The notes: a model not told the origin generated them from the sequence alone. Counted from the first letter of the stretch, positions 2,900-33,358 are shown. The stretch is DNA of 38,021 nucleotides from an uncultured Candidatus Saccharibacteria bacterium (GCA_964563845.1 CAZLYJ010000001.1:1-38021), one strand, 5' to 3'. Numbers and translations: made by a program.

Positions 2900-2928
2900 A
2901 GTTTAGCATAAATTTTTGTTTATGTCAA
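2900..2928 (-). promoter_or_regulatory. Sigma70-type promoter (TTGACA-17-TAAACT)
   Basis: The minus strand reads ttgaca taaacaaaaatttatgc taaact, upstream of the replication genes. It has the same architecture as the promoter at 811-839. Confidence 0.45.
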
Positions 2929-3306
2929 TGGATTTTTTACTATAATGATTTTGATAATAAATCCTCGCATATTCTTTGTGTTTAGTATAATTTTTAGTAT
3001 AATTTTTTTTTCATAACACGATGAACAAAATCCTTTTCCTCTATGTTTATTATTTGTCTTTTTACATATTACACACTGATTATACTTTATTGCCCAAGTA
3101 GTTATTTTTTTAGCCCCTCTTTTGTTTTTTTCTAATGAATAATGGCATTTGGCGCAAACTAACATTAAATTCTCTAAATCATTGTTTTGTTTAGAAATAG
3201 GCAAGCTTGAACCTTGTCCGTCTATATGATGAATATGCATTTTTTCTTTTTTTAAAAAACAAACGCCACACTTATTTTGATATTTTTTAATCACTTTATC
3301 TCTCAT
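2920..3306 (-). CDS. HNH endonuclease with extra C-terminal zinc ribbon
   Basis: The HNH region reads CGVCF...HIHHIDG...NDLENLMLVCAKCH. A downstream CVIC...CSSC zinc ribbon follows. The start overlaps the upstream ORF stop as ATGA. Confidence 0.75.
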   Translation of the reverse strand: MRDKVIKKYQNKCGVCFLKKEKMHIHHIDGQGSSLPISKQNNDLENLMLVCAKCHYSLEKNKRGAKKITTWAIKYNQCVICKKTNNKHRGKGFCSSCYEKKIILKIILNTKNMRGFIIKIIIVKNPLT

Positions 3307-6196: not shown

Positions 6197-7930
6197 ATGT
6201 CAAAAAAGAGTAAAAAAGAGGAGATAAAGGAAGAAAAATTGGCCGACACCATACGGGATCGCATTGCCGTTTCCATTAAGTTTATGAAAGACTGGAAAGC
6301 AAGCGTGGACACGGCCAATCTGTATTGGACGGGCAAATCGCGTCCCAAGAGCATATCGCGCGAGAACTATTATTCCGTCAATTATATCTACGCCATCATC
6401 AAGGATTCTATTGCGAGGATGTACTACCGCAATCCGCAAATCAATGTGGAACCCGTGAACGGCAAAGATCCCGCCATATTCACGAACGCCAAGAATGCGC
6501 AGCTTGTTTTAAACTGGCAAGCGCAAAAGAAAGAATATCGGTTAAGAGACCATATCAAATTGGCTTTACTGGATTGGCAAAGAACGGGAATGGGCGTAGT
6601 CTTTACCGGATGGACAACGCTTTTGGAACAGGAAAAAGACGAAATTAAAAGGATTCAAAAAGACCAGCCCGACATTAAGAGAATCCACCCAAAGCATATT
6701 TATCTTGCCCCCGGCTTTACCAGAGACAAAATAGACTATGTGGTGTTGGAATATCAAGTGCCTCTCAAAGAAGTGAAGAATAATAAGAATTTTAATCAGA
6801 AGGTTTTAGACGGATTCAATATCACAAGTTATTTGGACAAAGAATGGCGCGATGACGGCAATGGAGGAACAAGAGTTAAAGAAACGGAAGATATGGCCAG
6901 AGTGACGCTGTATCACTACTATGACGCGGAGCATTGGTTTGTAATGCTAAAAGGCGCGGACGATCCTTTAATGGAAAAAGAGAATCCGTATACGGCGGTA
7001 TTCGGAGAAGATAATCCCCTCCCTATTACAATCATTTGGGGAGACGACGATTTGGCCTCACCCTTTCCAATCTCAAAGATTGATCCGATAAAGGATGTGG
7101 TCAGGGAACTGTCAATGATCCGAAGCCAGCAGGTCAATCATCGCAAGAGATTCAATCGCAAGGCTTTATATGACAGCAATTCCATTGACGAAACAAAAAT
7201 AGAAAAACTAAAAAATCCCGATGACGGCACTATGATTGGCATAGCCTTAGAAAGCGGCAAGACATTAGATGGCGCGATTTATCCCATACCGGAACAGCCC
7301 TTACAGTATCCATTTCAAATTGAGCCGATGGTCAAAGAGGATATATATGTCATTTCCGGCACGACGCCCACGGCTCTAACCGGCAAGTCGGCCAATCCCA
7401 CCTTAGGACAAGATGAGCTATCAGCCAAGAGCGCGCAAAACCGAGAAGAAGAAGATCAATCCCAAGTGGAGCAATTCGTGGAAGCGATATATCAAAGGCT
7501 TTTACAGCTTGATCAAACCTATCTGCAACAGCCCGTAGCAATGCAAGTATCGGGCTCCATAGATCATCAATGGATGGAGTTGACAAGCACGGATATTGCG
7601 GGCGGGATGACGCTCAAAGTGATATCTGGTTCTATGGTGAGAGAAACCGATGAGGTAGTTCGCAAACAAGCTATGGATGTGTTAAACTTAGTGGGAATGT
7701 TACCGATTGGACAGCCACTTATTCCTGAAATTATTCAGAAGATACTTGACACCTTTCCGATGTTTTCCGATATAGCGGAAAAGATAAGAAGGATGATGGC
7801 GCAACCGCAACCGCCCATTTTGCCTCCTCAAATGGGAGAGACAGGCAATGGGCCGATGAATCAAAGTATATTGAATCAAAACGCGCCAACAGCCAGCGGA
7901 TTATCAAATGGCGCGAATAAAATAACTTAA
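6197..7930 (+). CDS. Portal protein
   Basis: 577-aa ORF in the canonical position after terminase and before the scaffold-like and capsid genes. The call rests on size and position only. Confidence 0.7.
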   Translation: MSKKSKKEEIKEEKLADTIRDRIAVSIKFMKDWKASVDTANLYWTGKSRPKSISRENYYSVNYIYAIIKDSIARMYYRNPQINVEPVNGKDPAIFTNAKNAQLVLNWQAQKKEYRLRDHIKLALLDWQRTGMGVVFTGWTTLLEQEKDEIKRIQKDQPDIKRIHPKHIYLAPGFTRDKIDYVVLEYQVPLKEVKNNKNFNQKVLDGFNITSYLDKEWRDDGNGGTRVKETEDMARVTLYHYYDAEHWFVMLKGADDPLMEKENPYTAVFGEDNPLPITIIWGDDDLASPFPISKIDPIKDVVRELSMIRSQQVNHRKRFNRKALYDSNSIDETKIEKLKNPDDGTMIGIALESGKTLDGAIYPIPEQPLQYPFQIEPMVKEDIYVISGTTPTALTGKSANPTLGQDELSAKSAQNREEEDQSQVEQFVEAIYQRLLQLDQTYLQQPVAMQVSGSIDHQWMELTSTDIAGGMTLKVISGSMVRETDEVVRKQAMDVLNLVGMLPIGQPLIPEIIQKILDTFPMFSDIAEKIRRMMAQPQPPILPPQMGETGNGPMNQSILNQNAPTASGLSNGANKIT

Positions 7931-7934
7931 TAAT

Positions 7935-8255
7935 ATGTCAGAACAAAATTTATATCTAACGCTCACCGATAAAGAACTGCCCGATCTCGCTCAATGGAAA
8001 GCGGGCAAGGAGTATGAAGTATTAGCCAGAATTAAAATGGTAAAAATGACCAAAGAGATGAACGAAAAAGGCAAAGAACTGAAAGCGGATTTTAGCATTG
8101 TGAATATTCGGGATGTGGAAGAAGCCGATATGAAGTATCGCTCTAAATTCCAAAAAGTGGCCAAAGAGGCGATGAAAGATTCACTCGTGAAAAATAAGCC
8201 AGAAGAAAAGAATGAAACTTATGTGACGCTAAGAACCGAACCTTATGTTAGCTAA
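7935..8255 (+). CDS. Hypothetical head-module protein (106 aa, Lys/Glu-rich)
   Basis: Track ORF between the portal and the scaffold-like gene. Confidence 0.5.
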   Translation: MSEQNLYLTLTDKELPDLAQWKAGKEYEVLARIKMVKMTKEMNEKGKELKADFSIVNIRDVEEADMKYRSKFQKVAKEAMKDSLVKNKPEEKNETYVTLRTEPYVS

Positions 8256-8538
8256 GAGATATGAGGACGCGAAAAAGGAGCAGGTTAATTTCAAGAATAA
8301 ATATTGTTGGGGATGCGGAGATTCAAGATATACGGTGGCCAGCCGATACTGCAAAAGGTGCGACGCTAAGATTGAAGAAAAGATACGAATGGACTCAAAA
8401 AGCGGACGGGCGAAAAACCAGAATTACGGATATGACAGGGGAATGAATTACGGCCTTGGCATTTATATTGAAAGCAAAGATGAATTTAAAAAAGGCGTTA
8501 AATACGCGGAAACCGAAGGAACATTTTTAAAAGGTTAG
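8245..8538 (+). CDS. Zinc-ribbon protein (97 aa)
   Basis: CWGC...CKRC motif. It overlaps the preceding gene by 11 nt. Confidence 0.5.
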   Translation: MLAKRYEDAKKEQVNFKNKYCWGCGDSRYTVASRYCKRCDAKIEEKIRMDSKSGRAKNQNYGYDRGMNYGLGIYIESKDEFKKGVKYAETEGTFLKG

Positions 8539-8607
8539 TTCGCCGCAAGGAAGAAGCGAGCCAATCTTTTATCAGCGGCTCAATTATCAACTCAACCGCA
8601 AAATTTT

Positions 8608-9354
8608 ATGCCAGACGAAGAAATCGGGCAAACCGAAGGAAGCTTTGTTCCTGATGAAGGGCAAACAACGGGTTCCGAAAGCGCGGCAACCGAGGCAGTA
8701 GAGGGTAATCCGCCCGCAGAGGCGAATCCTCAAGCGCCGGAGATTAAACCGCAATTTGGCCAATTTGGAGAGGACGCCAACAAACTTTACGAGGGCTACA
8801 AAGCTCTTGAGAGCAAACTCGGCAATTGGAACGAAACCGAGGAATTAGCGAATAAGTATCGGGAGCTTCAAGCGAATCCGCCAGTGGCGGAAACGCCCGA
8901 AGAGGTGCCTGACTTCCAAGCAATGACGCAAGAAGAACAGCTTGCGTATTTACGCGCTGACGCGCGAAAAGAAGCCGAGAAAGCCGTTCAAGAAGCGATC
9001 GCCAAAGAAGTCAAACCGCTTCAACAAGATGTTTATACGCGCCAAGCTAATGAAGCTGCGGCTAAAATCAAGGAAAAATATCCTGATATTGAGCAGCATA
9101 AAGACGCGATAAACAAGTTTCTTGATGATAATCCCGCTATTGCCGCTAACCTTAATCCGGAAGTATTTGACATAGCCTATCGTTATGTCACTTATGAAAA
9201 GGCGAAAGAACTTGGGGCCAAAGACGCGATAGCCAAACTATCGCAAAAAGCCGCCAAGAATACGCCTCAACCGATGGGCAGCGTTCCAGTCACCTCCACA
9301 ACGCCAAAATCATTTATGGAAGCATTAAGACAAGCGGAAGACGAGGTAAGTTAA
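8608..9354 (+). CDS. Putative scaffolding protein
   Basis: 248-aa acidic protein rich in Ala, Glu and Lys, with a helical-looking sequence. It lies directly upstream of the capsid gene. Confidence 0.6.
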   Translation: MPDEEIGQTEGSFVPDEGQTTGSESAATEAVEGNPPAEANPQAPEIKPQFGQFGEDANKLYEGYKALESKLGNWNETEELANKYRELQANPPVAETPEEVPDFQAMTQEEQLAYLRADARKEAEKAVQEAIAKEVKPLQQDVYTRQANEAAAKIKEKYPDIEQHKDAINKFLDDNPAIAANLNPEVFDIAYRYVTYEKAKELGAKDAIAKLSQKAAKNTPQPMGSVPVTSTTPKSFMEALRQAEDEVS

Positions 9355-9370
9355 ATAGAATTAAAATTAT

Positions 9371-10321
9371 ATGGCAACAGGAAATACGAATTTTGACGCC
9401 ATAGCCTCAAGCACCTTGCAGAAATATAAACCAACCTTATACGACAATGTGTTCAAAAGAACCCCTTTGTTTTATAAGTTAATGGAAAAAGGCAGTAAAG
9501 ATGTACTGGACGGCGGACGATCAATCGTCGTGCCGGTCATTATGTCCGCTAACAGCACTGCGGCAGGGTATTCGGGCTATGGGACGATCGATATTACTCC
9601 GCAATCAAATGAAAGCGCGGCCGAATTCGAGTGGTGTCAGTACGCCGCTTCAATCGCGATCTCCGGACTGGAAGAAAGAAAAAATGCGGATTCCAAAACG
9701 CAAATCTATAAACTTTTGGAAGCAAAAACAAAAAATGCGGAAGATTCTCTCCGCCGAAAAATGGACATTGCCGCCTTTTCAAATGCCAATGGGTCAACCA
9801 GCGCTTTGAATGGTTTGCAAACATTGGTGGACGCCACCTCAACGGTCGGCGGAATCAATAGAACCAATGACGCTTTTTGGCAAGCGGTAGTCAACGCTTC
9901 AATCGGTTCATTCGCTACGAATGGATTGGACAAAATGCGCTCTACCTACAATTCTTGCACCGATGAAGGCCAAGACGCGCCAGACTTCGGAATCACCACG
10001 CAAGCCGTCTTTGAGTACTATGAGAAATCATTGCAGACTCAACAGCGCTTTACCGACAGCAAAACCGCTGACGGAGGATTTGAAAATCTCAAATTCAAAG
10101 GAATGGTTTTGATGTTTGATTCCAACTGCGCTTCGGGAGAAATGTATATGTTAAATTCCAACTGGTTGAAATTGGCCGTCCATAAAGACGCTGATTTGGA
10201 AATCGGAGCTTTCGTAGTTCCGGCCAACCAAGACGCAAAGGTCGCCAAAATTCTGTTTCAGGGTAATTTGATTGTTCTCCAATCTCGCCGCCAAGGCAAG
10301 ATCACGGGAATTACGGCCTGA
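9371..10321 (+). CDS. Major capsid protein
   Basis: 316-aa ORF after the scaffold-like gene. Its size and position fit an HK97-fold capsid protein. The fold assignment is an inference. Confidence 0.7.
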   Translation: MATGNTNFDAIASSTLQKYKPTLYDNVFKRTPLFYKLMEKGSKDVLDGGRSIVVPVIMSANSTAAGYSGYGTIDITPQSNESAAEFEWCQYAASIAISGLEERKNADSKTQIYKLLEAKTKNAEDSLRRKMDIAAFSNANGSTSALNGLQTLVDATSTVGGINRTNDAFWQAVVNASIGSFATNGLDKMRSTYNSCTDEGQDAPDFGITTQAVFEYYEKSLQTQQRFTDSKTADGGFENLKFKGMVLMFDSNCASGEMYMLNSNWLKLAVHKDADLEIGAFVVPANQDAKVAKILFQGNLIVLQSRRQGKITGITA

Positions 10322-10330
10322 TATTTTTCT

Positions 10331-10359
10331 TTGACATATTTCTTAGGAAGGAGTATAAT
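10331..10359 (+). promoter_or_regulatory. Perfect consensus sigma70 promoter (TTGACA-17-TATAAT) serving the HNH gene
   Basis: ttgaca tatttcttaggaaggag tataat begins 10 nt after the capsid stop codon. Confidence 0.7.
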
Positions 10360-10391: not shown

Positions 10392-10964
10392 ATGCTTTCA
10401 AAAGAAATATTACAGAAAAAATATTGGAACGAACGATTAAGTCTTAAAAAGATTGCTCAAGAAGAGCAAGTATCTCCAAAAACAGTTGCACGGTGGATGG
10501 AAAGTTGGAACATTGAAAGAAGGCCATTTAGTACGAAAGGTCTTCAAACAAGACTTGGAGCAATACTAACCGAAGAAACAAAAAAGAAGATAGCTCAAAA
10601 ACATTTAGGAAAAAGGTTATCTCCAGAACATCGGAAGAAGGTAGTAGCCAATCTTAATAAGTATCGTTGGGGGAATAAAAATCCCGCATGGACAGGTGGT
10701 ATAGTTGTTAGTGATAATGGATATATTCTTATTAAAATGAGAAATCATCCAAGAGCCAATAAAAATGGATATATAGGATCACACATTTTACTTCTTGAAC
10801 AAAAGATTGGTAGATACTTAGAAAAAGATGAAGTCGCTCATCACAAGAACGAAAAGCGTTGGGATAATCGGTTAGAGAATCTTCAAGTTATGACTTTCAA
10901 TAAACATTCTAAATATCATGCAATAAAAAGATACAAAGCAAATAAAGGACTAAATCATTCTTAA
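10392..10964 (+). CDS. Free-standing HNH homing endonuclease (HNH_3-like)
   Basis: Motif GYIGSHILLLEQKIGRYLEKDEVAHHKNEKRWDNRLENLQVMTFNKH. The gene is visibly more AT-rich than the flanking structural genes and has its own promoter. Confidence 0.8.
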   Translation: MLSKEILQKKYWNERLSLKKIAQEEQVSPKTVARWMESWNIERRPFSTKGLQTRLGAILTEETKKKIAQKHLGKRLSPEHRKKVVANLNKYRWGNKNPAWTGGIVVSDNGYILIKMRNHPRANKNGYIGSHILLLEQKIGRYLEKDEVAHHKNEKRWDNRLENLQVMTFNKHSKYHAIKRYKANKGLNHS

Positions 10965-10997
10965 ACCATTATTAAAATCTAATCAATTAAAAATATT

Positions 10998-11258
10998 ATG
11001 GCTTTCGCCTCTACTACAACCACTGCCCCGGGACCTGATGTATTGGGTTCTTCCCGTCTTATCTCGGGAACATATACCAATGCTGAAACGGATTCGGGCG
11101 GCGCAATTTCAACGGGCTTTTCAGTCATTATCGCTTGCGGCGTATTTTCTACAAACGCAATCGGCAATGCAGATCCGAAATTCACTGTTTCGGGAGGCAC
11201 AATCACTGTCGTCACTTCTAATGGAGCGGACGGTTCGTGGTGGGCCATAGGGAGATGA
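10998..11258 (+). CDS. Stand-alone H-type-lectin-like beta module (86 aa), possible head-associated protein
   Basis: It ends in ...TGFSV...GSWWAIGR. This shares the W-x-A-[IL]-G terminal signature with the C-termini of the fibre-like proteins at 19560 and 20074. The N-terminus is Thr-rich (ASTTTTAPGP). Confidence 0.45.
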   Translation: MAFASTTTTAPGPDVLGSSRLISGTYTNAETDSGGAISTGFSVIIACGVFSTNAIGNADPKFTVSGGTITVVTSNGADGSWWAIGR

Positions 11259-11261
11259 CGT

Positions 11262-11660
11262 ATGAAGATAGCCTATTTAGCGGGAATTATTGACGGAGAA
11301 GGATGTATATTAATTCATCGTTCAATAAACGACAAGGGATACATTGGCTATACTCTTGAAGTAGGGGTAAGAAATACTGATGGTCGTCTAATTGATTGGT
11401 TAAAAAACAATTATGGTGGAACTGTTAAAGTTTCCAGTCGAGGAAATTCTAAACATAAAACTTGCTATGATTGGAGATTATTCAATCAAAAAGCGATAAG
11501 CCTTTTACTTCTTATTCTTCCTTACTTAATTGTAAAAAAAGAACAAATAGAAGTCGCGCTAAAGTTTCCTGTAGGAAAGATAGTAAGAAATCCAGCATTA
11601 CGTGAATGGATATATAAAACCCTTCAATCCCTAAAGGCTATGGTTTATACACTAAACTAG
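11262..11660 (+). CDS. LAGLIDADG homing endonuclease (single-motif type)
   Basis: The N-terminus MKIAYLAGIIDGEGCI matches the LAGLIDADG motif. The protein is 132 aa and AT-rich. An SD-like gggaga lies 6 nt upstream. Confidence 0.85.
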   Translation: MKIAYLAGIIDGEGCILIHRSINDKGYIGYTLEVGVRNTDGRLIDWLKNNYGGTVKVSSRGNSKHKTCYDWRLFNQKAISLLLLILPYLIVKKEQIEVALKFPVGKIVRNPALREWIYKTLQSLKAMVYTLN

Positions 11661-11758
11661 AACCATTACTCGTAGACGTGTTTCCGGGAGATGCGAGTGG
11701 GTAAAGTCCATCAGCCTACCCGGACAAAATTACTCACTAAGAAATCTAAAAAAACAAT

Positions 11759-12220
11759 ATGCAAATTCAACAAGTCAACCGAACAGATGATGAAAAAATT
11801 TATCTGGTCGTTAAAAATGTAAACGCGGTAACCGCTACCACCGGATTCGGTCTTCGTTATGTCGGCGGAGCCGCAGCGGAGATTGTTTCCACCGGCGGAG
11901 CAAACGCGGTCTTTCAGACTGATGCCACCAACGGATTAGCCGCCGGTGTCGCAGTTGAAGACATTGCCGTAAATGCGTACGGACGCGTGCAGGCTTACGG
12001 GCTTGTGTCGGTCGCGTACTCGTTTGAAGCGGACAAAACAGTCGGCGTAACAGGCGTTGCTACAAGTCTTTTAAAGACTGGCGGTCTGGCTGGCTCTTTT
12101 ACTTCCACTCGCGTACCGGAAGGACTGTCAACATCGCTCTACAAATACGCCATCAATATGGTGACCACCAATATTTCAGGCGGATTGCCTCTGGGGAGCG
12201 CATTTATAAGATATTTGTAG
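11759..12220 (+). CDS. Putative head decoration/cement protein (DUF2190-like pattern)
   Basis: 153-aa protein rich in Gly, Ala, Val and Thr. The GLAAGVAVEDIAVNAYGRVQAYGLVSV segment resembles DUF2190 beta-barrel proteins. Confidence 0.4.
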   Translation: MQIQQVNRTDDEKIYLVVKNVNAVTATTGFGLRYVGGAAAEIVSTGGANAVFQTDATNGLAAGVAVEDIAVNAYGRVQAYGLVSVAYSFEADKTVGVTGVATSLLKTGGLAGSFTSTRVPEGLSTSLYKYAINMVTTNISGGLPLGSAFIRYL

Positions 12221-12240
12221 CTAAGATTAGCTAAAATAAG

Positions 12241-12266
12241 GGGGATAGGGCGTTGGCCTTATCCCC
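12241..12266 (+). other. GC-rich 10-bp hairpin after the decoration-like gene
   Basis: ggggataggg cgttgg ccttatcccc. No T-run follows on the plus strand. Confidence 0.5.
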
Positions 12267-12285
12267 TAACGAAAGGAAGAAAAAT

Positions 12286-12447
12286 ATGAGAGAAAAAGAC
12301 ATTAAATATTTCAGGTGCCAGAGCGATCATCAAATTGTTACGGCCAGGATGATCCATAAAGGGTTGGCGTGCGGACATCAACTGCGCATAGCCGGATATG
12401 TCACATTTTTGGAATGGCTATTGATTAAAATAAGGTGGATAAGGTAA
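12286..12447 (+). CDS. Hypothetical 53-aa protein
   Basis: The track ORF is trimmed to the ATG at 12286, which is preceded by aaggaag. Confidence 0.4.
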   Translation: MREKDIKYFRCQSDHQIVTARMIHKGLACGHQLRIAGYVTFLEWLLIKIRWIR

Positions 12448-12457
12448 AAATAAATTT

Positions 12458-13228
12458 ATGGAAGGAAGAATAATAAAGGTGGCGATAGGCGTACCGACGA
12501 AAGGGACGACTGACGCGCCCGCTTACGACAATCATTTGACGCTTCTGGCGCATTTGGGAAAATTGCAAATCGCCTCGTGGGCGGGAATAAAAGAAATGGA
12601 CGGAGAGTATTTTGATTATCCGGACGGCATTAAATTCAAATTCGCTTTAATGACTTTACCCCGAGTATTCCCCGCATTAGCCAGAGAGAAGATAGCGGAA
12701 GAAGCGAAAGAACAGAATTGCGATTATCTTTTCTTCTTTGACGATGATATGATAATGATGCCGGACATATTTGAAAGATTATTCAAGCACCGGAAAGATA
12801 TTGTCGCGGCTCTGGCCTTTTGCCGATTATATCCGTACAATCCGGTTATCTATAATCTGACGAAAGGATATGACGGAGTGGAGAAAAAAGAATACTATAT
12901 TAACTTGACGGTTAATCGGTATCCGAAAGACCAATTAGTGGAATGCGACGCGGTCGGTTTCGGAGCGGTGCTGATTGATATGAAGCTCTTGGATACAATA
13001 CAGAAGCCGTGGTTTATGACGACAAGCGGGGCTGGTGAAGATATACATTTTTGTCATTTAGCGGGAAAAGCGGGATTCAGGGTATTTATGGATACGGCCA
13101 CCAAGATAGGCCATTTAGGGGAAAGAGAAGTAGTCATCGAGGAAACTTACGAAAAAAATAATACTATTAAAGAAGATCGCCAAAGAGCGGGCGATGAAAA
13201 AAAATATCAAAAAAAGGAAGTATGCTAG
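12458..13228 (+). CDS. GT-A fold glycosyltransferase
   Basis: The N-terminal IKVAIGVPTKG strand and the DxD region YLFFFDDDMIM are typical of family-2-like glycosyltransferases. Confidence 0.65.
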   Translation: MEGRIIKVAIGVPTKGTTDAPAYDNHLTLLAHLGKLQIASWAGIKEMDGEYFDYPDGIKFKFALMTLPRVFPALAREKIAEEAKEQNCDYLFFFDDDMIMMPDIFERLFKHRKDIVAALAFCRLYPYNPVIYNLTKGYDGVEKKEYYINLTVNRYPKDQLVECDAVGFGAVLIDMKLLDTIQKPWFMTTSGAGEDIHFCHLAGKAGFRVFMDTATKIGHLGEREVVIEETYEKNNTIKEDRQRAGDEKKYQKKEVC

Positions 13229-14451
13229 AACCCATCACGATTTTAATCCCCACATATAATAATTCAGACCAACTGCGGCAATGCGTGGAATCAATCCTGT
13301 CGTATAACTTTATTCAACCGGCTGAAATAATCATCGTCAATAACGGACAAGCTCCTCTGGCATTTTTATATAAGGATATTAAAAATGTAAAAGTGTTTAC
13401 AATGAAAGAAAATCTCGGCTGGGAAGGCGGATTAAAAGAAGGTTTAAAACATACCAAAACAAAATATGTGATGTTTCTGAATGATGATGTGTATATCCCG
13501 CGATCTTCGTCAAATTGGTTAAGGAATATGGCGCGGGTGCTGGAAACATACAAAGAGGCGGGAGCTATCGGCCCGTCAAGCAATGTGGTAATGGGACAGC
13601 AAAACATATTCAGTCCGCCATTCGTTCAATGCTTTCAAGCGCAATTTCTTATTGGTTTCTGCATTTTATTCAGAAGAGCCGCACTTGACGATATTGGAGG
13701 AGTGGACGACACCTTGCCTGGAGGCGATGACTTTGATTATTCCATACGACTGCGGAAAAAGAACTGGAAAATGATTGTGATGAAAGACACTTTTGTTTAT
13801 CATCACGGCTTTCAGACCGGCAATGTATTGCACGGCGACCATACGGCCAAGAACGGCTGGAACTCTCCCCAAATGACGGAAAGAACGAATACGGCTATTA
13901 TCAAGAAACACGGATTTATTGACTGGTGGGAAACGATTGCGCCTCAACCGCTTGGCCATGATGATTTAATACGGGACGCGGAAGGGGACGAAATACGCGC
14001 CCTTGTTAAAGGAAAAGATGTTTGCGAATTGGGAGTAGGTGGTAAAAAGACGATAGAGAACTCTATCGGAGTGGATAGGGTGAAAAAAGGCGAGATGATT
14101 CCGTGGGTCAATCAAATATCAGTGGCGGATGTCGTGGCTGATGTAAGTGGAAAACTGCCCTTTGAAAATTCACAATACGATTGCGTGATCGCCCGTCATA
14201 TTCTGGAGCATTCCCTGGACACTTTAATCACCCTTGCTGAATGGTCAAGGATTATTAAGAAAGGCGGACAACTGATTATTGCCGTACCGAATGAGAACAT
14301 TGCCGATAGTATTCCGCTCAACCCGGAACATCTGCACGCTTTTACGCCTGAATCTCTTACCAATTTAGGCTATGCCAATGGATTGAAGCCGGTCAAAGCG
14401 ATTGAGGGGTATAATTCCGTATCATTTATCATTCAATTTGAAAAAGTATGA
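13222..14451 (+). CDS. Bifunctional family-2 glycosyltransferase / class I SAM-dependent methyltransferase
   Basis: The N-terminal half has ITILIPTYNN...IIIVNNG...FLNDDVY...GGDDFDYSIRL. The C-terminal half has VCELGVGG...DCVIARHILEH...KKGGQLIIAVPN. Confidence 0.8.
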   Translation: MLEPITILIPTYNNSDQLRQCVESILSYNFIQPAEIIIVNNGQAPLAFLYKDIKNVKVFTMKENLGWEGGLKEGLKHTKTKYVMFLNDDVYIPRSSSNWLRNMARVLETYKEAGAIGPSSNVVMGQQNIFSPPFVQCFQAQFLIGFCILFRRAALDDIGGVDDTLPGGDDFDYSIRLRKKNWKMIVMKDTFVYHHGFQTGNVLHGDHTAKNGWNSPQMTERTNTAIIKKHGFIDWWETIAPQPLGHDDLIRDAEGDEIRALVKGKDVCELGVGGKKTIENSIGVDRVKKGEMIPWVNQISVADVVADVSGKLPFENSQYDCVIARHILEHSLDTLITLAEWSRIIKKGGQLIIAVPNENIADSIPLNPEHLHAFTPESLTNLGYANGLKPVKAIEGYNSVSFIIQFEKV

Positions 14452-14459
14452 GAATAGCA

Positions 14460-14978
14460 CTAAGGAACGAATTGACCGGATTTGTTACGCTTAAAGCGTT
14501 TAACTTGTTCAGCTTTGTGAATATGGTTATGTTCAAATGTTGTAAGTACAACAAGATTCTCAATTCGATTGTCATTTTTAATGCCATTGATATGATGAAC
14601 ATGTTGTTTATGTTCAAGTTTTCGACTAAGATGCATTTCCATGACAAAACGATGTTCGCCAACCCAATGAGTTCCGTTCCAAATTTCAATGTAACCAGAT
14701 TGTTGATTTCGACGAGAACCAATAGAACGCCTACTGTCTTTCATTGCTTCTCCACCCTTCCATTGAGGATTAAGTTCGCCATTTTGAGTGTTTATGTTTT
14801 TAACAGAAGCGCATTTAGCAGAGCAATACAACTGTTTTCTATCGGCTATAAAGAGTTCTTTGCATTCTTTGCATATATATTCTTTATAGGGTGCGGGAAA
14901 ACGACCAGTTCCAACAGTATGCCAAGTTCCGTCTCCGTGATCTATCCATCCTCTTTGTTTCGCAATAGAGATTTTCAT
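14460..14978 (-). CDS. Free-standing HNH homing endonuclease (HNH_3-like), antisense to the late arm
   Basis: Motif GEHRFVMEMHLSRKLEHKQHVHHINGIKNDNRIENLVVLTTFEHNHIH, with an N-terminal Cys4. It is the only sizeable minus-strand gene between 3.6 and 31.3 kb. Confidence 0.8.
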   Translation of the reverse strand: MKISIAKQRGWIDHGDGTWHTVGTGRFPAPYKEYICKECKELFIADRKQLYCSAKCASVKNINTQNGELNPQWKGGEAMKDSRRSIGSRRNQQSGYIEIWNGTHWVGEHRFVMEMHLSRKLEHKQHVHHINGIKNDNRIENLVVLTTFEHNHIHKAEQVKRFKRNKSGQFVP

Positions 14979-15010
14979 AGTATTTTATTAATTAAGAGAG
15001 TAATACTTAT

Positions 15011-15039
15011 ATGATAGAGGAATCTTTGAGACCTGTCAA
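15011..15039 (-). promoter_or_regulatory. Promoter of the antisense HNH gene (TTGACA-17-TATCAT)
   Basis: The minus strand reads ttgaca ggtctcaaagattcctc tatcat. The -10 hexamer is the reverse complement of the ATGATA that starts the plus-strand glycosyltransferase gene at 15011. Confidence 0.55.
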
Positions 15040-15937
15040 GAGAGTAGCGTTTCCGTACGAGTCAAGACTCGGAAGAAATGACGGAAGTCCATTGTATTAT
15101 TCTCATTTAGTCAAACGCACACCAGGATTTGAAATGATCCACTTCACCTCGGAAGACACAGGCGACTTAGATAAGTGGGGACGGTTTGATGCTTGGATTT
15201 GGGTTGACTGGGGAGAAGACGCTCTTAAAGAAATGCTACCCTATACTCCAATGAGCTTAAAAGACAAGCACCCGTCAATCTATATATGTTCCGACACTCA
15301 CTTAGGCCGAGAGTATCGCTTTGAAAAAGCCTTGGAATTTGACTGGGTTTTCTTTAATCAAAAAAGAGCGATGGAAGAATTTACCGCTTTGTTTCCCGAA
15401 AAAAAGGAAAAGGTATTTTGGTTGCCTCACGCGGTTGAACCGCTGGCATACCCCAATAAGCCCGTATCAATCAAAAAGTTTGATATTGGTTTTGTCGGAT
15501 ATGTTTCTTTTCGCAAGAGAGCGGAAATGCTGGATAGGATGTTCAAGGAGTTCCCTAACTTCTTTTACGGACAAAGATTCTCGCGCTGGATATACGGCGA
15601 ACCGGCGGACGGACAAGATACGGCTGATATATTCCGAAAGTCAAAAATTGTTTTCAGTACAGCCGCAGTTGATGATGTTCAAATGCGCACTTTTGAGGCA
15701 TTAGCAACGGGTTCTTTTCTTCTCACGGAATGGGTACCGACACTTGAAGAATTGTTCGAGAATAAAAAACATCTGGTTTGGTACAAGACAATGGATGAAG
15801 CGGTGGAACTGGCGAAATACTATCTGGAGAATGAAATAGAAAGAGAAATGATTGCAACTGCTGGTATGCAGGAAGTGTTAGCGAATCATACATACGAAAA
15901 AAGATTTGAAAAAATATTATCAATTATTAAGATTTAA
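15011..15937 (+). CDS. CgeB-like glycosyltransferase (GT1-type C-terminal domain)
   Basis: RTFEALATGSFLLTEW...LVWYKTMDEAVELAKYYLENEIEREMIATAGMQEVLANHTYEKRF matches the CgeB / Glyco_trans_1_2 pattern. Confidence 0.7.
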   Translation: MIEESLRPVKRVAFPYESRLGRNDGSPLYYSHLVKRTPGFEMIHFTSEDTGDLDKWGRFDAWIWVDWGEDALKEMLPYTPMSLKDKHPSIYICSDTHLGREYRFEKALEFDWVFFNQKRAMEEFTALFPEKKEKVFWLPHAVEPLAYPNKPVSIKKFDIGFVGYVSFRKRAEMLDRMFKEFPNFFYGQRFSRWIYGEPADGQDTADIFRKSKIVFSTAAVDDVQMRTFEALATGSFLLTEWVPTLEELFENKKHLVWYKTMDEAVELAKYYLENEIEREMIATAGMQEVLANHTYEKRFEKILSIIKI

Positions 15938-15942
15938 TATTT

Positions 15943-16146
15943 ATGCCAAGAGGAAGACCGAAAACAATCCGCGCCAAAGGCCCCACCACTGTTTATGAAG
16001 CCGAACAGTTTATGCAATTTTTCATTAACTGCTTTGAAAGGCATCCGGAACGATCCTTTGACGAGATGATGGATTTGATGAAAATGCCGGCTGGTACTGT
16101 GAATATTCGGTATCTTGAAAAGATGAGAGATTTGGCCGAATTGTAG
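15943..16146 (+). CDS. Small protein with N-terminal AT-hook-like motif
   Basis: It starts with MPRGRPKT (GRP core). 67 aa. Confidence 0.45.
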   Translation: MPRGRPKTIRAKGPTTVYEAEQFMQFFINCFERHPERSFDEMMDLMKMPAGTVNIRYLEKMRDLAEL

Positions 16147-16174
16147 CTCTTTTATAACGAAAAAGGAGAAAATT

Positions 16175-16375
16175 ATGACGACTTACGAATTGAAGCTGGA
16201 TGTCTGCCTTAACGGATGCAAGAAAAAGTTGTATACTGTATTTATCAACGAAGACACCGGAGATATTTTGATGATTTGCCCCAAGTGCAACATAAAGTAC
16301 AAAAGTAAGCTCAAATTTATCTCGCGCGAAAAAGTTTTGCAAGTTATGCGAAACAACCGAAAGGAAGACGGTTAA
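16175..16375 (+). CDS. Zinc-ribbon protein (66 aa)
   Basis: C..GC...CPKC motif. An SD aaggag lies 8 nt upstream. The stop codon sits in the terminator loop. Confidence 0.5.
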   Translation: MTTYELKLDVCLNGCKKKLYTVFINEDTGDILMICPKCNIKYKSKLKFISREKVLQVMRNNRKEDG

Positions 16376-16391
16376 TGTCTTCCTTTTTTTT
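16363..16391 (+). terminator. Rho-independent terminator
   Basis: Stem ggaagac / gtcttcc with loop ggttaat, followed by eight T. Confidence 0.8.
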
Positions 16392-16422: not shown

Positions 16423-16728
16423 ATGGGTCAATTTAACACAGCAAGTAAATCAACAGGGCCGATTACGGCTGACGCGGTAGTATCAGCCGTACCGTGTATT
16501 ATTACGGCTATCACTTTGCGATCAGGCACGGGCGCGTCCAGCTTGGTGATTTACGATAACGCAACAGAGGCTTCGGGAGATATTAAGTGGGCGGCTTCTC
16601 TTGCCGCAACGACTGCGGCGGGCGATCAAACACACAGCATTGCTGGACTGGACATCGCGTGTACGAATGGAGCGTATGTGGACTGGACAGGTACGGGAGC
16701 AATCGGATATATTGGCTTTAAAACATAA
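16423..16728 (+). CDS. Small Gly/Ala/Thr-rich virion-module protein (101 aa)
   Basis: Track ORF. It is the first gene after the terminator, and its composition resembles the proteins at 10998 and 11759. Confidence 0.5.
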   Translation: MGQFNTASKSTGPITADAVVSAVPCIITAITLRSGTGASSLVIYDNATEASGDIKWAASLAATTAAGDQTHSIAGLDIACTNGAYVDWTGTGAIGYIGFKT

Positions 16729-16733: not shown

Positions 16734-17459
16734 ATGGCTAACCTTAGCACATACGATGATATTATTTCGCAAGTCAAAGATTTATTTGACGATGCTTCGG
16801 CGGGAGCAAACACGACTATCCGCCGACTTGTCGCGCCTGTCTTGTGGGATATTTACCGGAGAAAAAAATGGAAATTCGCCCGCAAAGAAACTACGGTCGC
16901 CACGGTCGCCTCTACCGAGAGCTATACCTTGGCCTCTGATTATGATTTTGGCGGAATGGTAAGCGTCGTCAATGATACGGCCAATACGCGCGTTTCCTAT
17001 ATCAGCGATGATGATTTTGACCGAATGTATCCGGACGGAAGCGCGAGCGGATCGCCCACGCTTTATCGTCTTTGGAACATTTCTTCAAATACCCAGCAAA
17101 TCAGCTTTTATCCGATTCCCTCGGCTGTGGAAACGATTACTTACAAATATTACCGGAAACCGACAGTAGTGGATTTATCTACGAATACGGACAATGACGA
17201 TGAAACGCCCGACCTGCCCCAGCAATACAGGGAATTGATTGTTTTGGGTGTTCTTATTGAACTGTTTAAAAAGGACGAATCCCAGCTGGCCAATGTCAAT
17301 GAAGTGAAATACGAAAATATGCTGAAAAGAATGGAACAGCAATACGCGGATGAACCGGACATCGTCCATATTCTGCGAAGCGAAGAAGAAAGATCGGGAA
17401 GCTCTTTGCCGACCGTGCAGTTTCCAAGCAATTACGGGCCGACCGTAGACCTTTATTAA
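16734..17459 (+). CDS. Putative head-tail adaptor / head completion protein
   Basis: 241-aa ORF immediately upstream of the large nozzle-like protein. The call is positional only. Confidence 0.35.
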   Translation: MANLSTYDDIISQVKDLFDDASAGANTTIRRLVAPVLWDIYRRKKWKFARKETTVATVASTESYTLASDYDFGGMVSVVNDTANTRVSYISDDDFDRMYPDGSASGSPTLYRLWNISSNTQQISFYPIPSAVETITYKYYRKPTVVDLSTNTDNDDETPDLPQQYRELIVLGVLIELFKKDESQLANVNEVKYENMLKRMEQQYADEPDIVHILRSEEERSGSSLPTVQFPSNYGPTVDLY

Positions 17460-17523: not shown

Positions 17524-19530
17524 ATGTCTTTATTCCGAACACCGGCTATCACTCCCAAACGGCTGGATACCTTTACTGTCAGCGGACTTGTCGGCGGTTG
17601 GAACTCCAGCGATAACCAAGACGAACTGAATGACAGGGAAATATCTGACGGACGGAATACGGAAATTACTTCTTCTTCCACAATCGCGCCTCGAGGCGGA
17701 TATGTCAATCGGGGCAATTTCTTGGGGGGTACTACAAAAATACTGGGACTTCACGAATGGATCAAAAGTGACGGAACGCGCAAGCTGATAGCGGTATACG
17801 ATACGGATGCGTATGTGCTGTCTACGGACTGGGAACCGGCCGGAATGGTTTTAACCAGCAACAAACCTGCCGAATTTGCCAATTATCTGGACAGGGCGTA
17901 TATGACGAATAAGGGGAGTACAGCCGCCGGACATTTGGGGGTTATGTACTATGACGGTACAAACTGGACGCAAGTAACGGGTTTTCCCATAGTAGGGGCA
18001 ACAGCATCGGACATTTGCGCGGGGTTGTGCGTGTATAAAGAAAGACTGATCGGGTGGAATACGACCAATTTCCCCAAGAGGGTGTATTATTCCAACGCTA
18101 ACGCGCATACGATAGGGACGCTGAATTATTTTGATATGGATGAGGCGGTAACGGCGTGCGTGCCTTTCTTCGACTACTTGCTGATTTTCACGGAAAACCA
18201 TTTATACAAAATATCTTCATTTATTTTTACCGGTGTCGCTTTTGAGCCGAATAATATTCAGCCCTTGGCGACCAAGAATGGATGCGCGGCAATGCGGACA
18301 ATTAAGCAGATAGGCAGCGCGGTATACTATCTCTCGGCGGACGGATTATATAAAACTGACGGATTCGTGGCAATAAATTTAACGAATAATAAGATAGAGA
18401 ATTTTTTGAATGATACGATGAGCAAGGCGGTGGTGGCGACATCTAATGCGGGAATAAATGGAACAGATTATCACCTTTGCATTTCCACAGACGGAACAAC
18501 CCAGAACGAGATTATCAGCTATGATACGGCGCGCAACATCTTCCAGCCGAGAAAAACAGGCAAAGCATTTTCCTGTTTCGCGCAATTCAAAGAAAGCGGA
18601 GCAGTAAAACTGTATGGAGGTTCGGACGCGGAAGGTCATATTTATCAACTTGCCTCAACAAACATTTATGATGATACGGCGGATGTGAGCCAAGCGGCCG
18701 GACAAGATACGGATGACGCGGTGGACGGAGGAGCAACGACTAAAAGACAGGCGCAGGGTTTTCAGCTTACGACGGCGGGGGAAGTAACCGGTGTCGCGCT
18801 GTATATGAAAAAGAACGCGGGAACAACCGCAGAATTGGCCATACGGATTGAAACAGATAACGCAGGAGTACCCTCGGGGACGGCCGTAACCAATGGAACG
18901 ACAACGCTATCGGCTTTCACGACAACGACCTATCGGTACAAGTACGCCACCTTTTCCACTCCGCCCATATTGAACGCGAGTACGACTTATTGGCTGGTGG
19001 TACAACATACAACAGAGGGAAGCGGAACAAGTCAGTATTATTGGGGATCGGACGACTCAAGCCCCGGATATGCTACCTACAACGCCGCCTCTTACGCCAG
19101 CAGTGCTTGGACGGCAGATACGAGCAAAGACCAGTTGTTTCGGATTTACACTAAAAGCGCCTATGAAAAGTATTTTATAACAAAAGGATATTCTTTGGGA
19201 AGCCCACAATATAAAAAGATTGTGAAAAGAGTATTTTGCGAATTAGACGCTTCAGGAAACTATAATATAGCAATAGGGTTGAATACCGACCAGTACACGA
19301 CATTTACCGAGATGACGCAGGATTTATCCGGCAATTCGCCGATACGCGGATCAACCCTTACAAGAGGAAATTTCACCAGAGGAACAATGTCTAAAATAAG
19401 TACGGTGTTAAAATTCTCGGATGTGAGGGGGCGAAGAATTAAATTAAGGGTGTATAATAATATGGCAGGCAATACTTTTAATTTTCATTCGGCGGTTTTA
19501 AATTATCGGCTAAAGCAAATTCCAAGATAA
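17524..19530 (+). CDS. Putative tail nozzle / tubular-B-like structural protein
   Basis: 668 aa with repeated beta-strand motifs (YMTNKG, VYYSN, VYYLSADGLYKTDG) that suggest a propeller. The C-terminal third is Thr-rich. The call is positional. Confidence 0.4.
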   Translation: MSLFRTPAITPKRLDTFTVSGLVGGWNSSDNQDELNDREISDGRNTEITSSSTIAPRGGYVNRGNFLGGTTKILGLHEWIKSDGTRKLIAVYDTDAYVLSTDWEPAGMVLTSNKPAEFANYLDRAYMTNKGSTAAGHLGVMYYDGTNWTQVTGFPIVGATASDICAGLCVYKERLIGWNTTNFPKRVYYSNANAHTIGTLNYFDMDEAVTACVPFFDYLLIFTENHLYKISSFIFTGVAFEPNNIQPLATKNGCAAMRTIKQIGSAVYYLSADGLYKTDGFVAINLTNNKIENFLNDTMSKAVVATSNAGINGTDYHLCISTDGTTQNEIISYDTARNIFQPRKTGKAFSCFAQFKESGAVKLYGGSDAEGHIYQLASTNIYDDTADVSQAAGQDTDDAVDGGATTKRQAQGFQLTTAGEVTGVALYMKKNAGTTAELAIRIETDNAGVPSGTAVTNGTTTLSAFTTTTYRYKYATFSTPPILNASTTYWLVVQHTTEGSGTSQYYWGSDDSSPGYATYNAASYASSAWTADTSKDQLFRIYTKSAYEKYFITKGYSLGSPQYKKIVKRVFCELDASGNYNIAIGLNTDQYTTFTEMTQDLSGNSPIRGSTLTRGNFTRGTMSKISTVLKFSDVRGRRIKLRVYNNMAGNTFNFHSAVLNYRLKQIPR

Positions 19531-19559
19531 AAAAATTATCAATTAAATTATATAAATTT

Positions 19560-20072
19560 GTGTCACAAATCACTTTACCAAATGTCATCGCGTCAGGCGA
19601 TGCGGACAATCCGACAAGAGATATGGCGAATTGGACAACCATTCGCGACATTATCAACGGCAATTTGGATAATACGAATATAAATGCCAGTGCGGCTATT
19701 GTAGATTCTAAGCTCTCTGTTCCCAATCGTATAAAACAAACTCAACGACAAGGAGGGAGCGCAACCGACTGGAATACAACAGGTACGACAACCAGAGATG
19801 TTACAAATCCTATCCTTCAATGCGGAACAATTACTATGACAAGCGGAGAATCGGGAACAGCTCCATACACAGCCTCGGTAACCGTTACTTTTCCCACAGC
19901 GTATACAAATAAACCGATTGTTGTTGCTTCACAAACTGAGATATCCGCGACATTGACTATTGGAGTTATGACCGGATCGATAACCACAACTTCGTTTCAA
20001 ATTACAGTCAACGCTTCTGCTGCCGGATATGTGGCTGGAGCGGTTGTTAATTGGATTGCTCTTGGGACATAA
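19560..20072 (+). CDS. Fibre/spike protein with C-terminal H-type-lectin-like domain
   Basis: GTG start. The C-terminus reads VTVTFPTAYTNKPIVVAS...TTTSFQITVNAS...AVVNWIALGT. Confidence 0.5.
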   Translation: MSQITLPNVIASGDADNPTRDMANWTTIRDIINGNLDNTNINASAAIVDSKLSVPNRIKQTQRQGGSATDWNTTGTTTRDVTNPILQCGTITMTSGESGTAPYTASVTVTFPTAYTNKPIVVASQTEISATLTIGVMTGSITTTSFQITVNASAAGYVAGAVVNWIALGT

Positions 20073-20073
20073 T

Positions 20074-20592
20074 ATGCTTACACCCAATAATGACGCTGAT
20101 AATATCATAAAAGTGCTTAATGGACAGTTGGGGGCGGTGAACTTCGGCGCGGTTGATTTACTCAAAAATGCTCAAATTGATTCTAATGCTCTCATCGCAC
20201 AAAGCAAATTAGACCCCGCAACCCTTCATCGCTCGGCTGTTTATGTTCAGAGCATTACATCAAATGCGCTTACAAGCAATCAGGTCATCTATCGGGGTTG
20301 GGGATATACGGGAAACTTTGGCGCGCCCACAGGAACTATTACAATCACTCTTCCTAATAGTGGCTTTGATGATGCGGCGTATGAAGTCTTCGTTACATAC
20401 TTGGGAGAAAAAGCAACCAATCCAACCTCACGCATTGATGTTACCAGCCACAGAGTAGGTTCGACTGCCGCAGAAGACCCGACATTGCCACGATCAGCAA
20501 CGCAGTTTCGAGCCACTTTTACGACAGGGGCTGGCGGTGGAAACTTTACTATCGTCGCCTTTAGTTGGATGGCGATTGGAACAAAGGCTTAA
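20074..20592 (+). CDS. Paralogous fibre/spike protein with lectin-like C-terminus
   Basis: The track ORF is trimmed to the ATG at 20074. Its N-terminus (NIIKVLNGQLG...IDSNALIAQSKLD) parallels that of the 19560 protein (DIINGNLDNTNINASAAIVDSKLS). It ends in FSWMAIGTKA. Confidence 0.5.
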   Translation: MLTPNNDADNIIKVLNGQLGAVNFGAVDLLKNAQIDSNALIAQSKLDPATLHRSAVYVQSITSNALTSNQVIYRGWGYTGNFGAPTGTITITLPNSGFDDAAYEVFVTYLGEKATNPTSRIDVTSHRVGSTAAEDPTLPRSATQFRATFTTGAGGGNFTIVAFSWMAIGTKA

Positions 20593-20609
20593 TTTAATTA
20601 CAGTAAAAT

Positions 20610-21317
20610 ATGTCTAATCAAAATTCAATTCCGGACCTAGGAGTCTCTCGCAGTCTGCTGGCCGTAGACGGAGAAACCAATACAGAAACACGGCGACTGC
20701 ACACATTGACGGCGGGAACTGTCAATGGTCTTGCCGTTGCCATAATTGACGGGGCGGGAGCGCAAATAACTTCTTTCGGCGGAGGCACGCAATATACGGA
20801 AGACGATCCGGCGGCGGCTAATCCTGTTGGCACCGCTCTAATAGGTATTCGCGCTGATGCTTTAGCCGGATTAACGACAGCCGATGGCGATAATGTCGCC
20901 GGAAGAATGACGGATAAAGGCGAGCTTTATGTCAAGCATTCAGATAAAATCTCAATTTATTCCATAGACGCCGGAGATACTAATATTGGCAATGTAGATG
21001 TCGTAACAATGCCGGTAGTAACAATAATCCACGGAATCACCGGCATAGCACACGGTGTAAAAACGATAACAACCGCCGGAACAGATGAAGCATTGGCCGG
21101 TTCAACCGTTTGCAAAAAAGTGATAATTCAAAGCCAGACCGACAATACGGGATTGATAGCGGTGGGAACTTCGGGCGTGGACGCGACCGAAGCGACAGGA
21201 ACGGGCGTTATTCTTTATGCGGGAGATGCTTTAGAAATTGAAATAGATAATTTGGCCGATGTGTATATTGACGCCACTGTCTCGGGGGAAGGCGTAAGAT
21301 ATTCGTGGTTTTCATAA
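20610..21317 (+). CDS. Virion/fibre-module protein (235 aa, Gly/Ala/Thr-rich)
   Basis: Track ORF in the fibre gene array. Confidence 0.45.
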   Translation: MSNQNSIPDLGVSRSLLAVDGETNTETRRLHTLTAGTVNGLAVAIIDGAGAQITSFGGGTQYTEDDPAAANPVGTALIGIRADALAGLTTADGDNVAGRMTDKGELYVKHSDKISIYSIDAGDTNIGNVDVVTMPVVTIIHGITGIAHGVKTITTAGTDEALAGSTVCKKVIIQSQTDNTGLIAVGTSGVDATEATGTGVILYAGDALEIEIDNLADVYIDATVSGEGVRYSWFS

Positions 21318-33349: not shown

Positions 33350-33358
33350 AATGTAGTT

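Follow-up and report, generated by a model that had tools for sequence, protein, structure and literature searches.

The 38,021-nt sequence CAZLYJ010000001.1 (GCA_964563845.1; positions 1–38021), deposited from an uncultured Candidatus Saccharibacteria bacterium and called here, over its whole length, the window, raises the question of what three sugar-handling genes are doing among the head genes of a phage, between those for the major capsid protein and the head-to-tail adaptor. A preliminary description of the segment from 10,998 to 16,146, made from the sequence alone, had proposed that they form a virion glycosylation system. This stands as the best candidate reading: a virion (capsid-surface) glycosylation module is the best explanation of the cassette and, on comparative genomics and structural prediction, a reasonably probable one. 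We favor it because in all 28 informative loci these genes go together with the capsid gene and with that for a protein predicted to decorate the capsid, because the enzymes are soluble, and because no lysogeny or hydroxymethylase-type genes were found among the ORFs scanned.

The slot that holds the cassette is anchored upstream by the major capsid gene (9371–10321, + strand; phrog_9953, 3e-62), whose product is a candidate glycan acceptor, and is bounded downstream by the adaptor gene (16734–17459, +; PF24175 SU10_adaptor, 9e-24). All of the open reading frames (ORFs) named in the preliminary description are present where it had placed them, and Pfam and PHROG scans bear out its identification of the three enzymes. 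The first (12458–13228, +) is a GT-A fold glycosyltransferase, recognized by weak Pfam matches to GT2 and Anp1, by PHROG glycosyltransferase families and by its motifs; D95xD97, E194-D195 and H219 are invariant in an alignment of 15 non-identical homologues. The second (13222–14451, +) is a GT2 domain (residues 1 to ∼240; PF00535, 2e-20) fused to a class I S-adenosylmethionine methyltransferase (∼250–409; PF08241, 3.5e-8), and the third (15011–15937, +) is a CgeB-type GT-B glycosyltransferase (PF13524 Glyco_trans_1_2, 3e-28). The NDD and GGDDxD motifs of the GT2 domain, and the DWGED motif and E229 of GT-B, are invariant across the relatives aligned. GT-B has 878 homologues; the 120 highest-ranking ones share at least 50% identity with it and come from contigs of phage size (≤43 kb). 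No transmembrane or hydrophobic segment was found in any of the three transferases, from which we conclude that they are soluble; judged from their sequences, the three enzymes are thus intact, under constraint and soluble.

Profile and structure comparisons, suggested as a check in the preliminary description, give the three enzymes affinities of different kinds. The best solved relatives of the GT-A family profile are Mnn9 (1.8e-4) and A197 of Sulfolobus turreted icosahedral virus (STIV; 3.3e-4, PDB 2c0n). The GT2 domain has only generic matches in the PDB, including PglI, GalT1, TarP and TarS, and is also weakly TagF-type by NCBIfam and PDB; in NCBIfam, MftF and MftM, respectively a glycosyltransferase and a methyltransferase of mycofactocin, are weak matches as well. 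The GT-B family profile finds weak GT4-like C-domain matches only. Mnn9 is a yeast enzyme of glycosyltransferase family 62 and a subunit of mannan polymerase, which makes protein-mannan. Searches of the PDB with the single sequences of the three enzymes returned generic GT2 structures or nothing.

Pfam and NCBIfam both place the methyltransferase among class I domains of the small-molecule type and not in a DNA methyltransferase family. This bears on the idea that the transferases glycosylate, and the methyltransferase methylates, the phage DNA as a defense against restriction. Phage glycosyltransferases that hypermodify DNA are well known (PMC12619734), but we give this idea almost no credence, as the cassette is located in the head operon and its methyltransferase is of the wrong type. 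Moreover, Pfam and PHROG scans covering most ORFs of at least 90 aa found no dCMP or dUMP hydroxymethylase, thymidylate-synthase-like gene, DNA polymerase, other nucleotide-modification gene or nucleotide-metabolism module, and without a hydroxymethylase DNA glycosylation is unlikely. The same scans found no integrase or repressor, in agreement with the earlier statement that lysogeny genes are not seen.

Two genes downstream of the capsid gene lies that for p153 (11759–12220, +), which is predicted to be a capsid decoration (cement) protein of the β-tulip type and is a candidate glycan carrier. Its AlphaFold model (predicted local distance difference test, pLDDT, 79) has as its best Foldseek match the base of the φ29 head fiber, gp8.5 (4e-4), with weaker matches (E ∼1e-3 to 0.14) to the decoration proteins of HFTV1, Pam3, T1, FCWL1 and TW1 and to lambda gpD/SHP. 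The 17 best matches are all to capsid decoration or head-fiber-base chains, with TM-scores of ∼0.5–0.6, and the fold of the model resembles that of the solved β-tulip decoration proteins (gpD, φ29 gp8.5 base and TW1 gp56 type). We recovered 63 homologues of p153, every one on a contig of 43 kb or less, and a profile search extended these to 288 clusters at 50% identity; no match was found in the deposited phage collection.

The linkage between this protein and the enzymes was examined in two sets of loci. In the first, taken from IMG/VR through either the capsid protein or GT-B, the order capsid–(p86)–p153–(p64)–GT-A–GT2/methyltransferase–GT-B–...–adaptor is common to ∼14 contigs with capsid identities down to 26–31%, and homing endonuclease genes are scattered among them at differing positions. 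The second set was obtained by scanning metagenome contigs with the p153 profile alone, so as to avoid selecting on the transferases, and comprises 80 loci, of which the 28 with at least 3 kb downstream of p153 are informative; genes were counted within 7 kb. At least one glycosyltransferase and a methyltransferase domain are present in 28 of these 28 loci, with GT-A in 26, a GT2 domain in 21, GT-B in 18 and a GT4 enzyme in four. The 28 loci represent 26, 18 and 9 clusters at 95%, 70% and 50% p153 identity, respectively, and in 34 of 37 loci the capsid gene is directly upstream of the p153 homologue. The survey of related contigs advocated in the preliminary description thus shows that the cassette recurs, and also that it is a conserved part of the head module.

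Two types of cassette can be distinguished. Type I, represented by the window, has the order capsid–p86–p153–p64–GT-A–GT2/methyltransferase–GT-B, and type II has the order capsid–(p86)–p153–GT4–methyltransferase–(p64-like)–GT-A; common to both are the decoration protein, the methyltransferase domain (28/28) and GT-A (26/28). Further sugar genes occupy the slot in relatives, among them an NAD epimerase/dehydratase (PF01370, 5e-55), a UDP-Glc/GDP-Man dehydrogenase, a formyltransferase, Maf/MptE-like proteins, GT4 enzymes and extra GT2s, as well as, in the close relative L010, a WbdD-like methyltransferase-kinase (PDB 4uw0, 4.5e-6). With this diversity the slot behaves as a variable glycosylation island.

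In one relative (L006; 18280–20028) the slot also encodes, beside five glycosyltransferases and immediately before the adaptor, a protein of 582 aa in which ∼350 residues form a Ser-rich (SSSP-type) repeat and which could plausibly be a heavily O-glycosylated fiber. Together with the report that tail-tube subunits are glycosylated besides the capsid in mycobacteriophages (according to the account in PMC12619734), this protein speaks for tail or fiber proteins as the virion acceptors in place of the capsid surface. We think this unlikely for the window, where the tail proteins have no Ser/Thr-rich repeats and where the cassette is linked to capsid and decoration genes and not to those for the fibers, which vary independently of it among the relatives.

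The small protein p86 (10998–11258, +), whose gene is conserved in the interval from the capsid gene to p153, is modeled as a β-sandwich (AlphaFold pLDDT 87) and may be a capsid accessory protein or knob. It has no family match in Pfam or in PDB profile searches, and its model, of the kind that had been suggested for the small proteins, gave nothing significant against the PDB in Foldseek. Against BFVD the p86 model has weak matches to tail-fiber tips and gp53-like C domains (E ∼1e-2, TM-scores 0.55–0.62), and when p86 is compared to fiber tips with hhalign the last strand alone aligns, with a probability of ∼1%. Its Thr-rich N-terminus, to which attention had been drawn, is kept in the closest relatives only.

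The preliminary description went further and suggested a system that both writes and reads glycans, in which p86 and the fiber tips would bind the glycan made by the cassette. The observation behind this is correct, in that the proteins starting at 10998, 19560 and 20074 all end in a W-x-A-[IL]-G strand, and the weak likeness of the p86 model to fiber tips and the conservation of p86 inside the module fit with it. However, of these three lectin-like proteins only the 170-aa short tail fiber (19560–20072, +) has a significant H_lectin domain (PF09458, 6e-9, 36.3 bits against a cutoff of 24; also PF21882, 4e-6), and PF09458 has no Pfam match in either p86 or the 187-aa short tail fiber (probable start 20074, to 20592, +), in which PF21882 (Gp53-like_C) is itself weak (E 0.37). 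The identification of p86 as an H-type lectin was pursued by Pfam, PDB profile search, pairwise BLAST, hhalign and Foldseek against the PDB, none of which gave anything significant, and only 18 of 37 loci have a recognizable p86 gene in the interval from the capsid gene to p153. The sole bona fide H-type lectin is at the tip of a tail fiber, the usual place for receptor binding, and we take it for an ordinary domain of that function; phages that have no glycosyltransferase at all commonly bind their receptors through H-lectin and gp53-like tips. Nothing ties this lectin to a glycan of the phage itself, no link was found between the two fiber proteins and the cassette, and we regard a write-and-read system as very unlikely.

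A further small protein, p64 (12253–12447, +), was recognized by family alignment and synteny. It is rich in neither known domains nor family matches but has conserved Cys and His residues and ends in an amphipathic helix, and translation probably begins at the ATG at 12286. Members of its family (∼50–90 aa) always lie directly upstream of GT-A, in both cassette types, and carry an RC-x2-C/D ... C/H-x-GH motif; p64 is possibly a partner of GT-A. The preliminary description was silent on p64, as it was on the three homing endonuclease genes of the region discussed below.

How might such a module work? A simple account of virion glycosylation is that the module is transcribed late with the head genes, and that the three soluble glycosyltransferases would act in the cytoplasm during assembly on nucleotide-sugars of the host, the latter being proposed because the window encodes no sugar-activation gene. 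Together they would attach a short oligosaccharide, probably through an O-linkage, to a virion protein that is exposed, the likeliest acceptors being p153, the major capsid protein or p86; the genomic linkage makes p153 the prime candidate. GT-A, present in 26 of the 28 loci and in both architectures, would be the initiating enzyme. Elongation would fall to the GT2 domain and to the CgeB-type GT-B, and a methyl group placed on a sugar by the fused methyltransferase would serve as the cap. The capsid would in this way acquire a coat of glycan, with possible roles in shielding, colloidal stability or adhesion. We infer, from the same evidence, that the acceptor is a virion protein, as well as the order of the steps, the identity of the sugars and the placing of the methyl group on a sugar. 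From the Mnn9/Anp1 and GT4-type affinities of the enzymes and the WbdD-like terminator of a relative, one may speculate that the glycan is of mannose type with a methyl cap.

Several considerations weigh against virion glycosylation. All of the evidence is genomic or from structural prediction, and the linkage to head genes is one of co-inheritance, not of substrate. A Ser/Thr-rich insertion or tail specific to the glycosyltransferase-bearing clade was sought in the capsid protein and none was found; its C-terminus aligns end-to-end with those of cassette-less relatives, without a glycan-bearing tail of the mycobacteriophage type. For Cluster J mycobacteriophages, whose similar genes are described below, glycosylation has apparently not been demonstrated either. 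Finally, the GT2 domain weakly matches TarP, TarS and PglI, enzymes of the GT2 and GT4-like kinds commonly serve in lipid-carrier pathways as well (teichoic acid, O-antigen), and a relative carries the WbdD-like chain terminator, WbdD being the terminator of chains in O-antigen synthesis on undecaprenyl pyrophosphate.

These affinities of the GT2 domain, to which the TagF-type match can be added, speak for a cassette that modifies a glycopolymer of the host cell envelope (teichoic acid, lipopolysaccharide/O-antigen or capsule) late in infection, perhaps preventing re-adsorption of progeny to debris or to infected cells. The lectin-type fiber tips, which make host glycans probable receptors, point the same way, as does the WbdD-like O-antigen terminator of the close relative L010. 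We nevertheless find modification of the envelope rather unlikely. Serotype-conversion and TarP genes typically sit near lysogeny or accessory modules, whereas this cassette is in the late head operon of a phage in which no lysogeny genes were found, and in 28 of 28 loci it is linked to the decoration protein and not to receptor-binding genes. Nor was a flippase, GtrA/B/C, a ligase or an ABC transporter found in the scanned ORFs, and the enzymes themselves have no transmembrane segment, such that neither the membrane components nor the lysogeny-module location that characterize Gtr and prophage wall-teichoic-acid systems are seen here.

The cassette itself has close parallels in the actinobacteriophages, where Clusters J and O have transferase genes in the capsid-to-connector slot; the window likewise has soluble phage-encoded glycosyltransferases with intact motifs in this position. 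A tblastn search with GT-A of 50,697 deposited phages matched 35 mycobacteriophage records, two Manatee Spring podoviruses and two Synechococcus phages, and the mycobacteriophage matches listed are ∼106–113 kb Cluster J genomes (such as Optimus, Thibault and Baka). The similarity of GT-A to Cluster J gp12 is 2e-5 in the whole collection and 4e-14 in a local tblastn, and no actinobacteriophage match was found for the other two enzymes in searches of the phage collection. In Optimus, gp12 is the first gene after that for the major head protein and is followed by a kinase, a methyltransferase and three more glycosyltransferases, with another just before the head-tail connector.

Cluster J and the window thus share the slot (directly after the major capsid gene and before the connector or adaptor), the combination of several glycosyltransferases with an S-adenosylmethionine methyltransferase, the homology of gp12 to GT-A, and free-standing homing endonucleases with interrupted capsid genes; the Cluster J kinase is paralleled by the WbdD-like methyltransferase-kinase of the close relative. 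They differ in that the Cluster J phages are ∼110-kb siphoviruses of Mycobacterium while the window is a ∼38-kb podovirus of a probably non-actinobacterial host, and GT-A alone is detectably homologous. The published analysis of Cluster J describes an interruption of 8–10 genes between the capsid and connector genes (gp12–gp21 in Optimus), a methyltransferase-glycosyltransferase fusion in LittleE, and free-standing homing endonucleases together with capsid-gene introns, and in 2013 left the choice between viral and host targets open (PMC3706429). With at least five glycosyltransferases, a methyltransferase and a kinase in the same slot (PMC3706429), Cluster J does not permit the earlier view that the window has a more elaborate system than those of actinobacteriophages.

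Demonstrated cases come from other phages. In the mycobacteriophages Che8, Corndog and Myrna, transferases encoded by the phage have been demonstrated to glycosylate the virion (Freeman 2023, according to PMC12363180, PMC12619734 and PMC11256854), and these citing accounts place the glycans at the C-termini of capsid and tail-tube subunits. As there described, soluble phage transferases add O-linked glycans to the phage's own capsid and tail-tube proteins in the cytoplasm before lysis, which is the same logic that we propose here from genes alone; the glycans are on C-terminal extensions, however, and the capsid protein of the window has no such tail. No sequence similarity to the transferases of these three phages was detected in the phage collection. 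Among phages at large, the 2023 mycobacteriophage study reportedly saw few signs that virions are glycosylated.

Viruses of other domains and cellular systems provide looser comparisons. A064R of the chlorovirus PBCV-1 is a single polypeptide that extends the glycan of the capsid protein and methylates the terminal sugar (PMC7826918), and so, like the fusion protein of the window, joins glycosyltransferase and methyltransferase domains in one viral polypeptide. It belongs to a eukaryotic giant virus with N-linked glycans, however, has three domains (two rhamnosyltransferases and a methyltransferase), and showed no sequence similarity to the window enzymes in PDB searches. STIV A197, the minimal viral GT-A caught by the GT-A family profile, has been proposed to glycosylate its own capsid protein in the cytoplasm (PMC10551542), although here the virus is archaeal, of the double jelly roll capsid lineage, and has a single enzyme whose acceptor is also unproven. 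GT-B shares PF13524 with CgeB, a maturation enzyme of the Bacillus spore crust, and the Maf/MptE-like proteins, formyltransferase and epimerase in the slot of relatives recall the Maf islands of flagellin glycosylation. The cge genes serve to modify a glycan layer, that of a shell made of protein. Both are cellular systems acting on spores or flagella, and the similarity is at the level of families and not of orthology.

The p153-type decoration protein, p86 and p64 were found in none of the GenBank phages searched, and the GT-B and GT2-methyltransferase matches to deposited phages are weak, partial and confined to uncultured contigs. Of the four deposited relatives checked, namely cultured phages of Bradyrhizobium and of TM7 and a pair of metagenome-assembled genomes from Manatee Spring, none has an annotated glycosyltransferase in the slot. 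We note that a deposited Manatee Spring podovirus (MW202711; L111) has, at 6508–9115, a minimal form consisting of capsid, a 100-aa protein, a GT-A homologue and tail tubular protein A.

From the capsid gene to the adaptor the cassette genes all point the same way, one minus-strand endonuclease gene among them excepted. The GT-A and GT2-methyltransferase genes overlap by 7 nt. Two small ORFs (15943–16375, +), encoding 67 aa and 66 aa, the latter with a CxxC...CxxC zinc ribbon, close the transcription unit and have no family match in Pfam, PHROG or NCBIfam scans. The last of them is followed by an intrinsic-terminator-like hairpin (16359–16387, +; a 12-bp stem and then a T run), which was found only after the cassette and marks the end of the capsid-glycosylation unit. 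Beyond it and directly upstream of the adaptor is p101 (16423–16728, +), which is probably a structural protein, its homologues preceding the adaptor in several loci, and is only a putative member of the cassette. The Gly/Ala/Thr-rich character described for the small proteins is evident, with Gly/Ala/Thr/Ser fractions of 0.55, 0.42 and 0.52 for those starting at 10998, 11759 and 16423. A perfect σ70 consensus, TTGACA-17-TATAAT, is present at 10331–10359, directly 3' of the capsid gene and 5' of the first endonuclease gene, and there is a minus-strand promoter-like site at 15039–15011.

Three homing endonuclease genes lie in the cassette region, and these are mobile insertions outside the glycosylation system. 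The first is an HNH enzyme (10392–10964, +; PF13392, 3e-8; phrog_7545, 2e-26) that most relatives lack at this position, the second is a LAGLIDADG enzyme (11262–11660, +; motif LAGIIDGEG; phrog_5046, 2.5e-25; PF00961 weak), and the third is an HNH enzyme at the GT2-methyltransferase/GT-B junction (14460–14978, −; PF13392, 1e-8). The equivalent junction in three relatives (L018–L020) likewise holds a minus-strand HNH gene, which suggests that it is a recurrent homing site. Further homing endonuclease genes are at 2920–3306, 32936–33367 and 33619–34266, all on the − strand, giving six free-standing genes (five HNH and one LAGLIDADG) in a ∼38-kb genome, with positions that vary among relatives. 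Several relatives (L009, at 6453–7762; L071/L072; and L093) have their major capsid gene divided between two ORFs, with small ORFs between the halves in L009, and the split suggests an intron or endonuclease insertion of the sort reported for the capsid genes of Cluster J mycobacteriophages. One further contig, L021 (∼18100–20927), has an identical copy of the region and, after the homologue of window positions 22135–22713, an HK97-type head module (Peptidase_S78, Phage_capsid and connector); it is probably a chimeric assembly.

The ends of the window share a 54-nt overlap, and it is therefore a complete phage genome; a 38,047-nt groundwater metagenome contig, ERZ909588 (PRJNA268031), matches it. 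The phage is best read as a lytic podovirus with a genome of ∼38 kb. Pfam and PHROG scans identify a podovirus-type late region on the + strand, with a large terminase (4653), portal (6197) and scaffold (8608) upstream of the capsid gene, and, downstream of the adaptor, a 668-aa tubular/nozzle-like protein (17524) and a 1227-aa internal-virion-like protein (25156–28839). The capsid protein is 22–36% identical to that of any deposited phage, these including the Manatee Spring podoviruses, a Bradyrhizobium phage, Mx8 and Brucella Tb; no similarity at the DNA level to deposited phages was found, and a tRNA scan of the window was negative.

Attempts to assign a host through genome bins were uninformative, with three matches to metagenome-assembled genomes in three different phyla, at ∼36% identity and on short contigs. 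Most of ten late genes examined (24 nt upstream of each) have A/T-rich leaders without a Shine-Dalgarno sequence, for example at 9347–9370, 10974–10997 and 11735–11758, which hints at a host with Shine-Dalgarno-independent initiation, such as a member of the Bacteroidota. We also note a Zeta_toxin/AAA_33 P-loop kinase domain (PF06414, 1.4e-15) at residues 225–381 of the 1227-aa protein. Zeta toxins phosphorylate UDP-N-acetylglucosamine, and the kinase, once ejected, might target the pool of host cell-wall precursors.

The layout and logic of the cassette are already known from the phages described above. What is new is the lineage, an uncultured clade of ∼38-kb podoviruses from groundwater, soil, freshwater and marine samples that is without a deposited genome, together with the existence of two cassette types and what, from the sequences, appears to be an obligate linkage of the cassette to a β-tulip decoration protein and to p86 and p64. 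A bolder interpretation, which we put forward tentatively and would not yet call probable, is that capsid self-glycosylation is an obligatory and ancient trait of a large global podovirus clade outside the Actinobacteria, with p153 as the glycan carrier and the slot as a hypervariable island that sets the type of glycan. The size of the clade is indicated by the 288 p153 clusters and by the at least 878 GT-B homologues from the four environments named above. Under this bolder interpretation the slot could be likened to the O-antigen and flagellin glycosylation islands of bacteria, and capping of the glycan by methyl or WbdD-like phospho-methyl groups would generate a serotype-like surface diversity among environmental phages.

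To our knowledge, virion self-glycosylation has so far been shown only in phages of mycobacteria. Here a module conserved across hundreds of environmental contigs without a deposited relative is tied to a capsid decoration protein, and if virion glycosylation is indeed its function, sugar-coated phage particles would be common in nature, well beyond the actinobacteriophages. It would also provide a compact three-enzyme system for the glyco-engineering of capsids, and would open up the role of a glycan coat outside animal hosts, whether in stability, in adhesion to biofilm or mucus, or in the evasion of grazing or of host surface traps.

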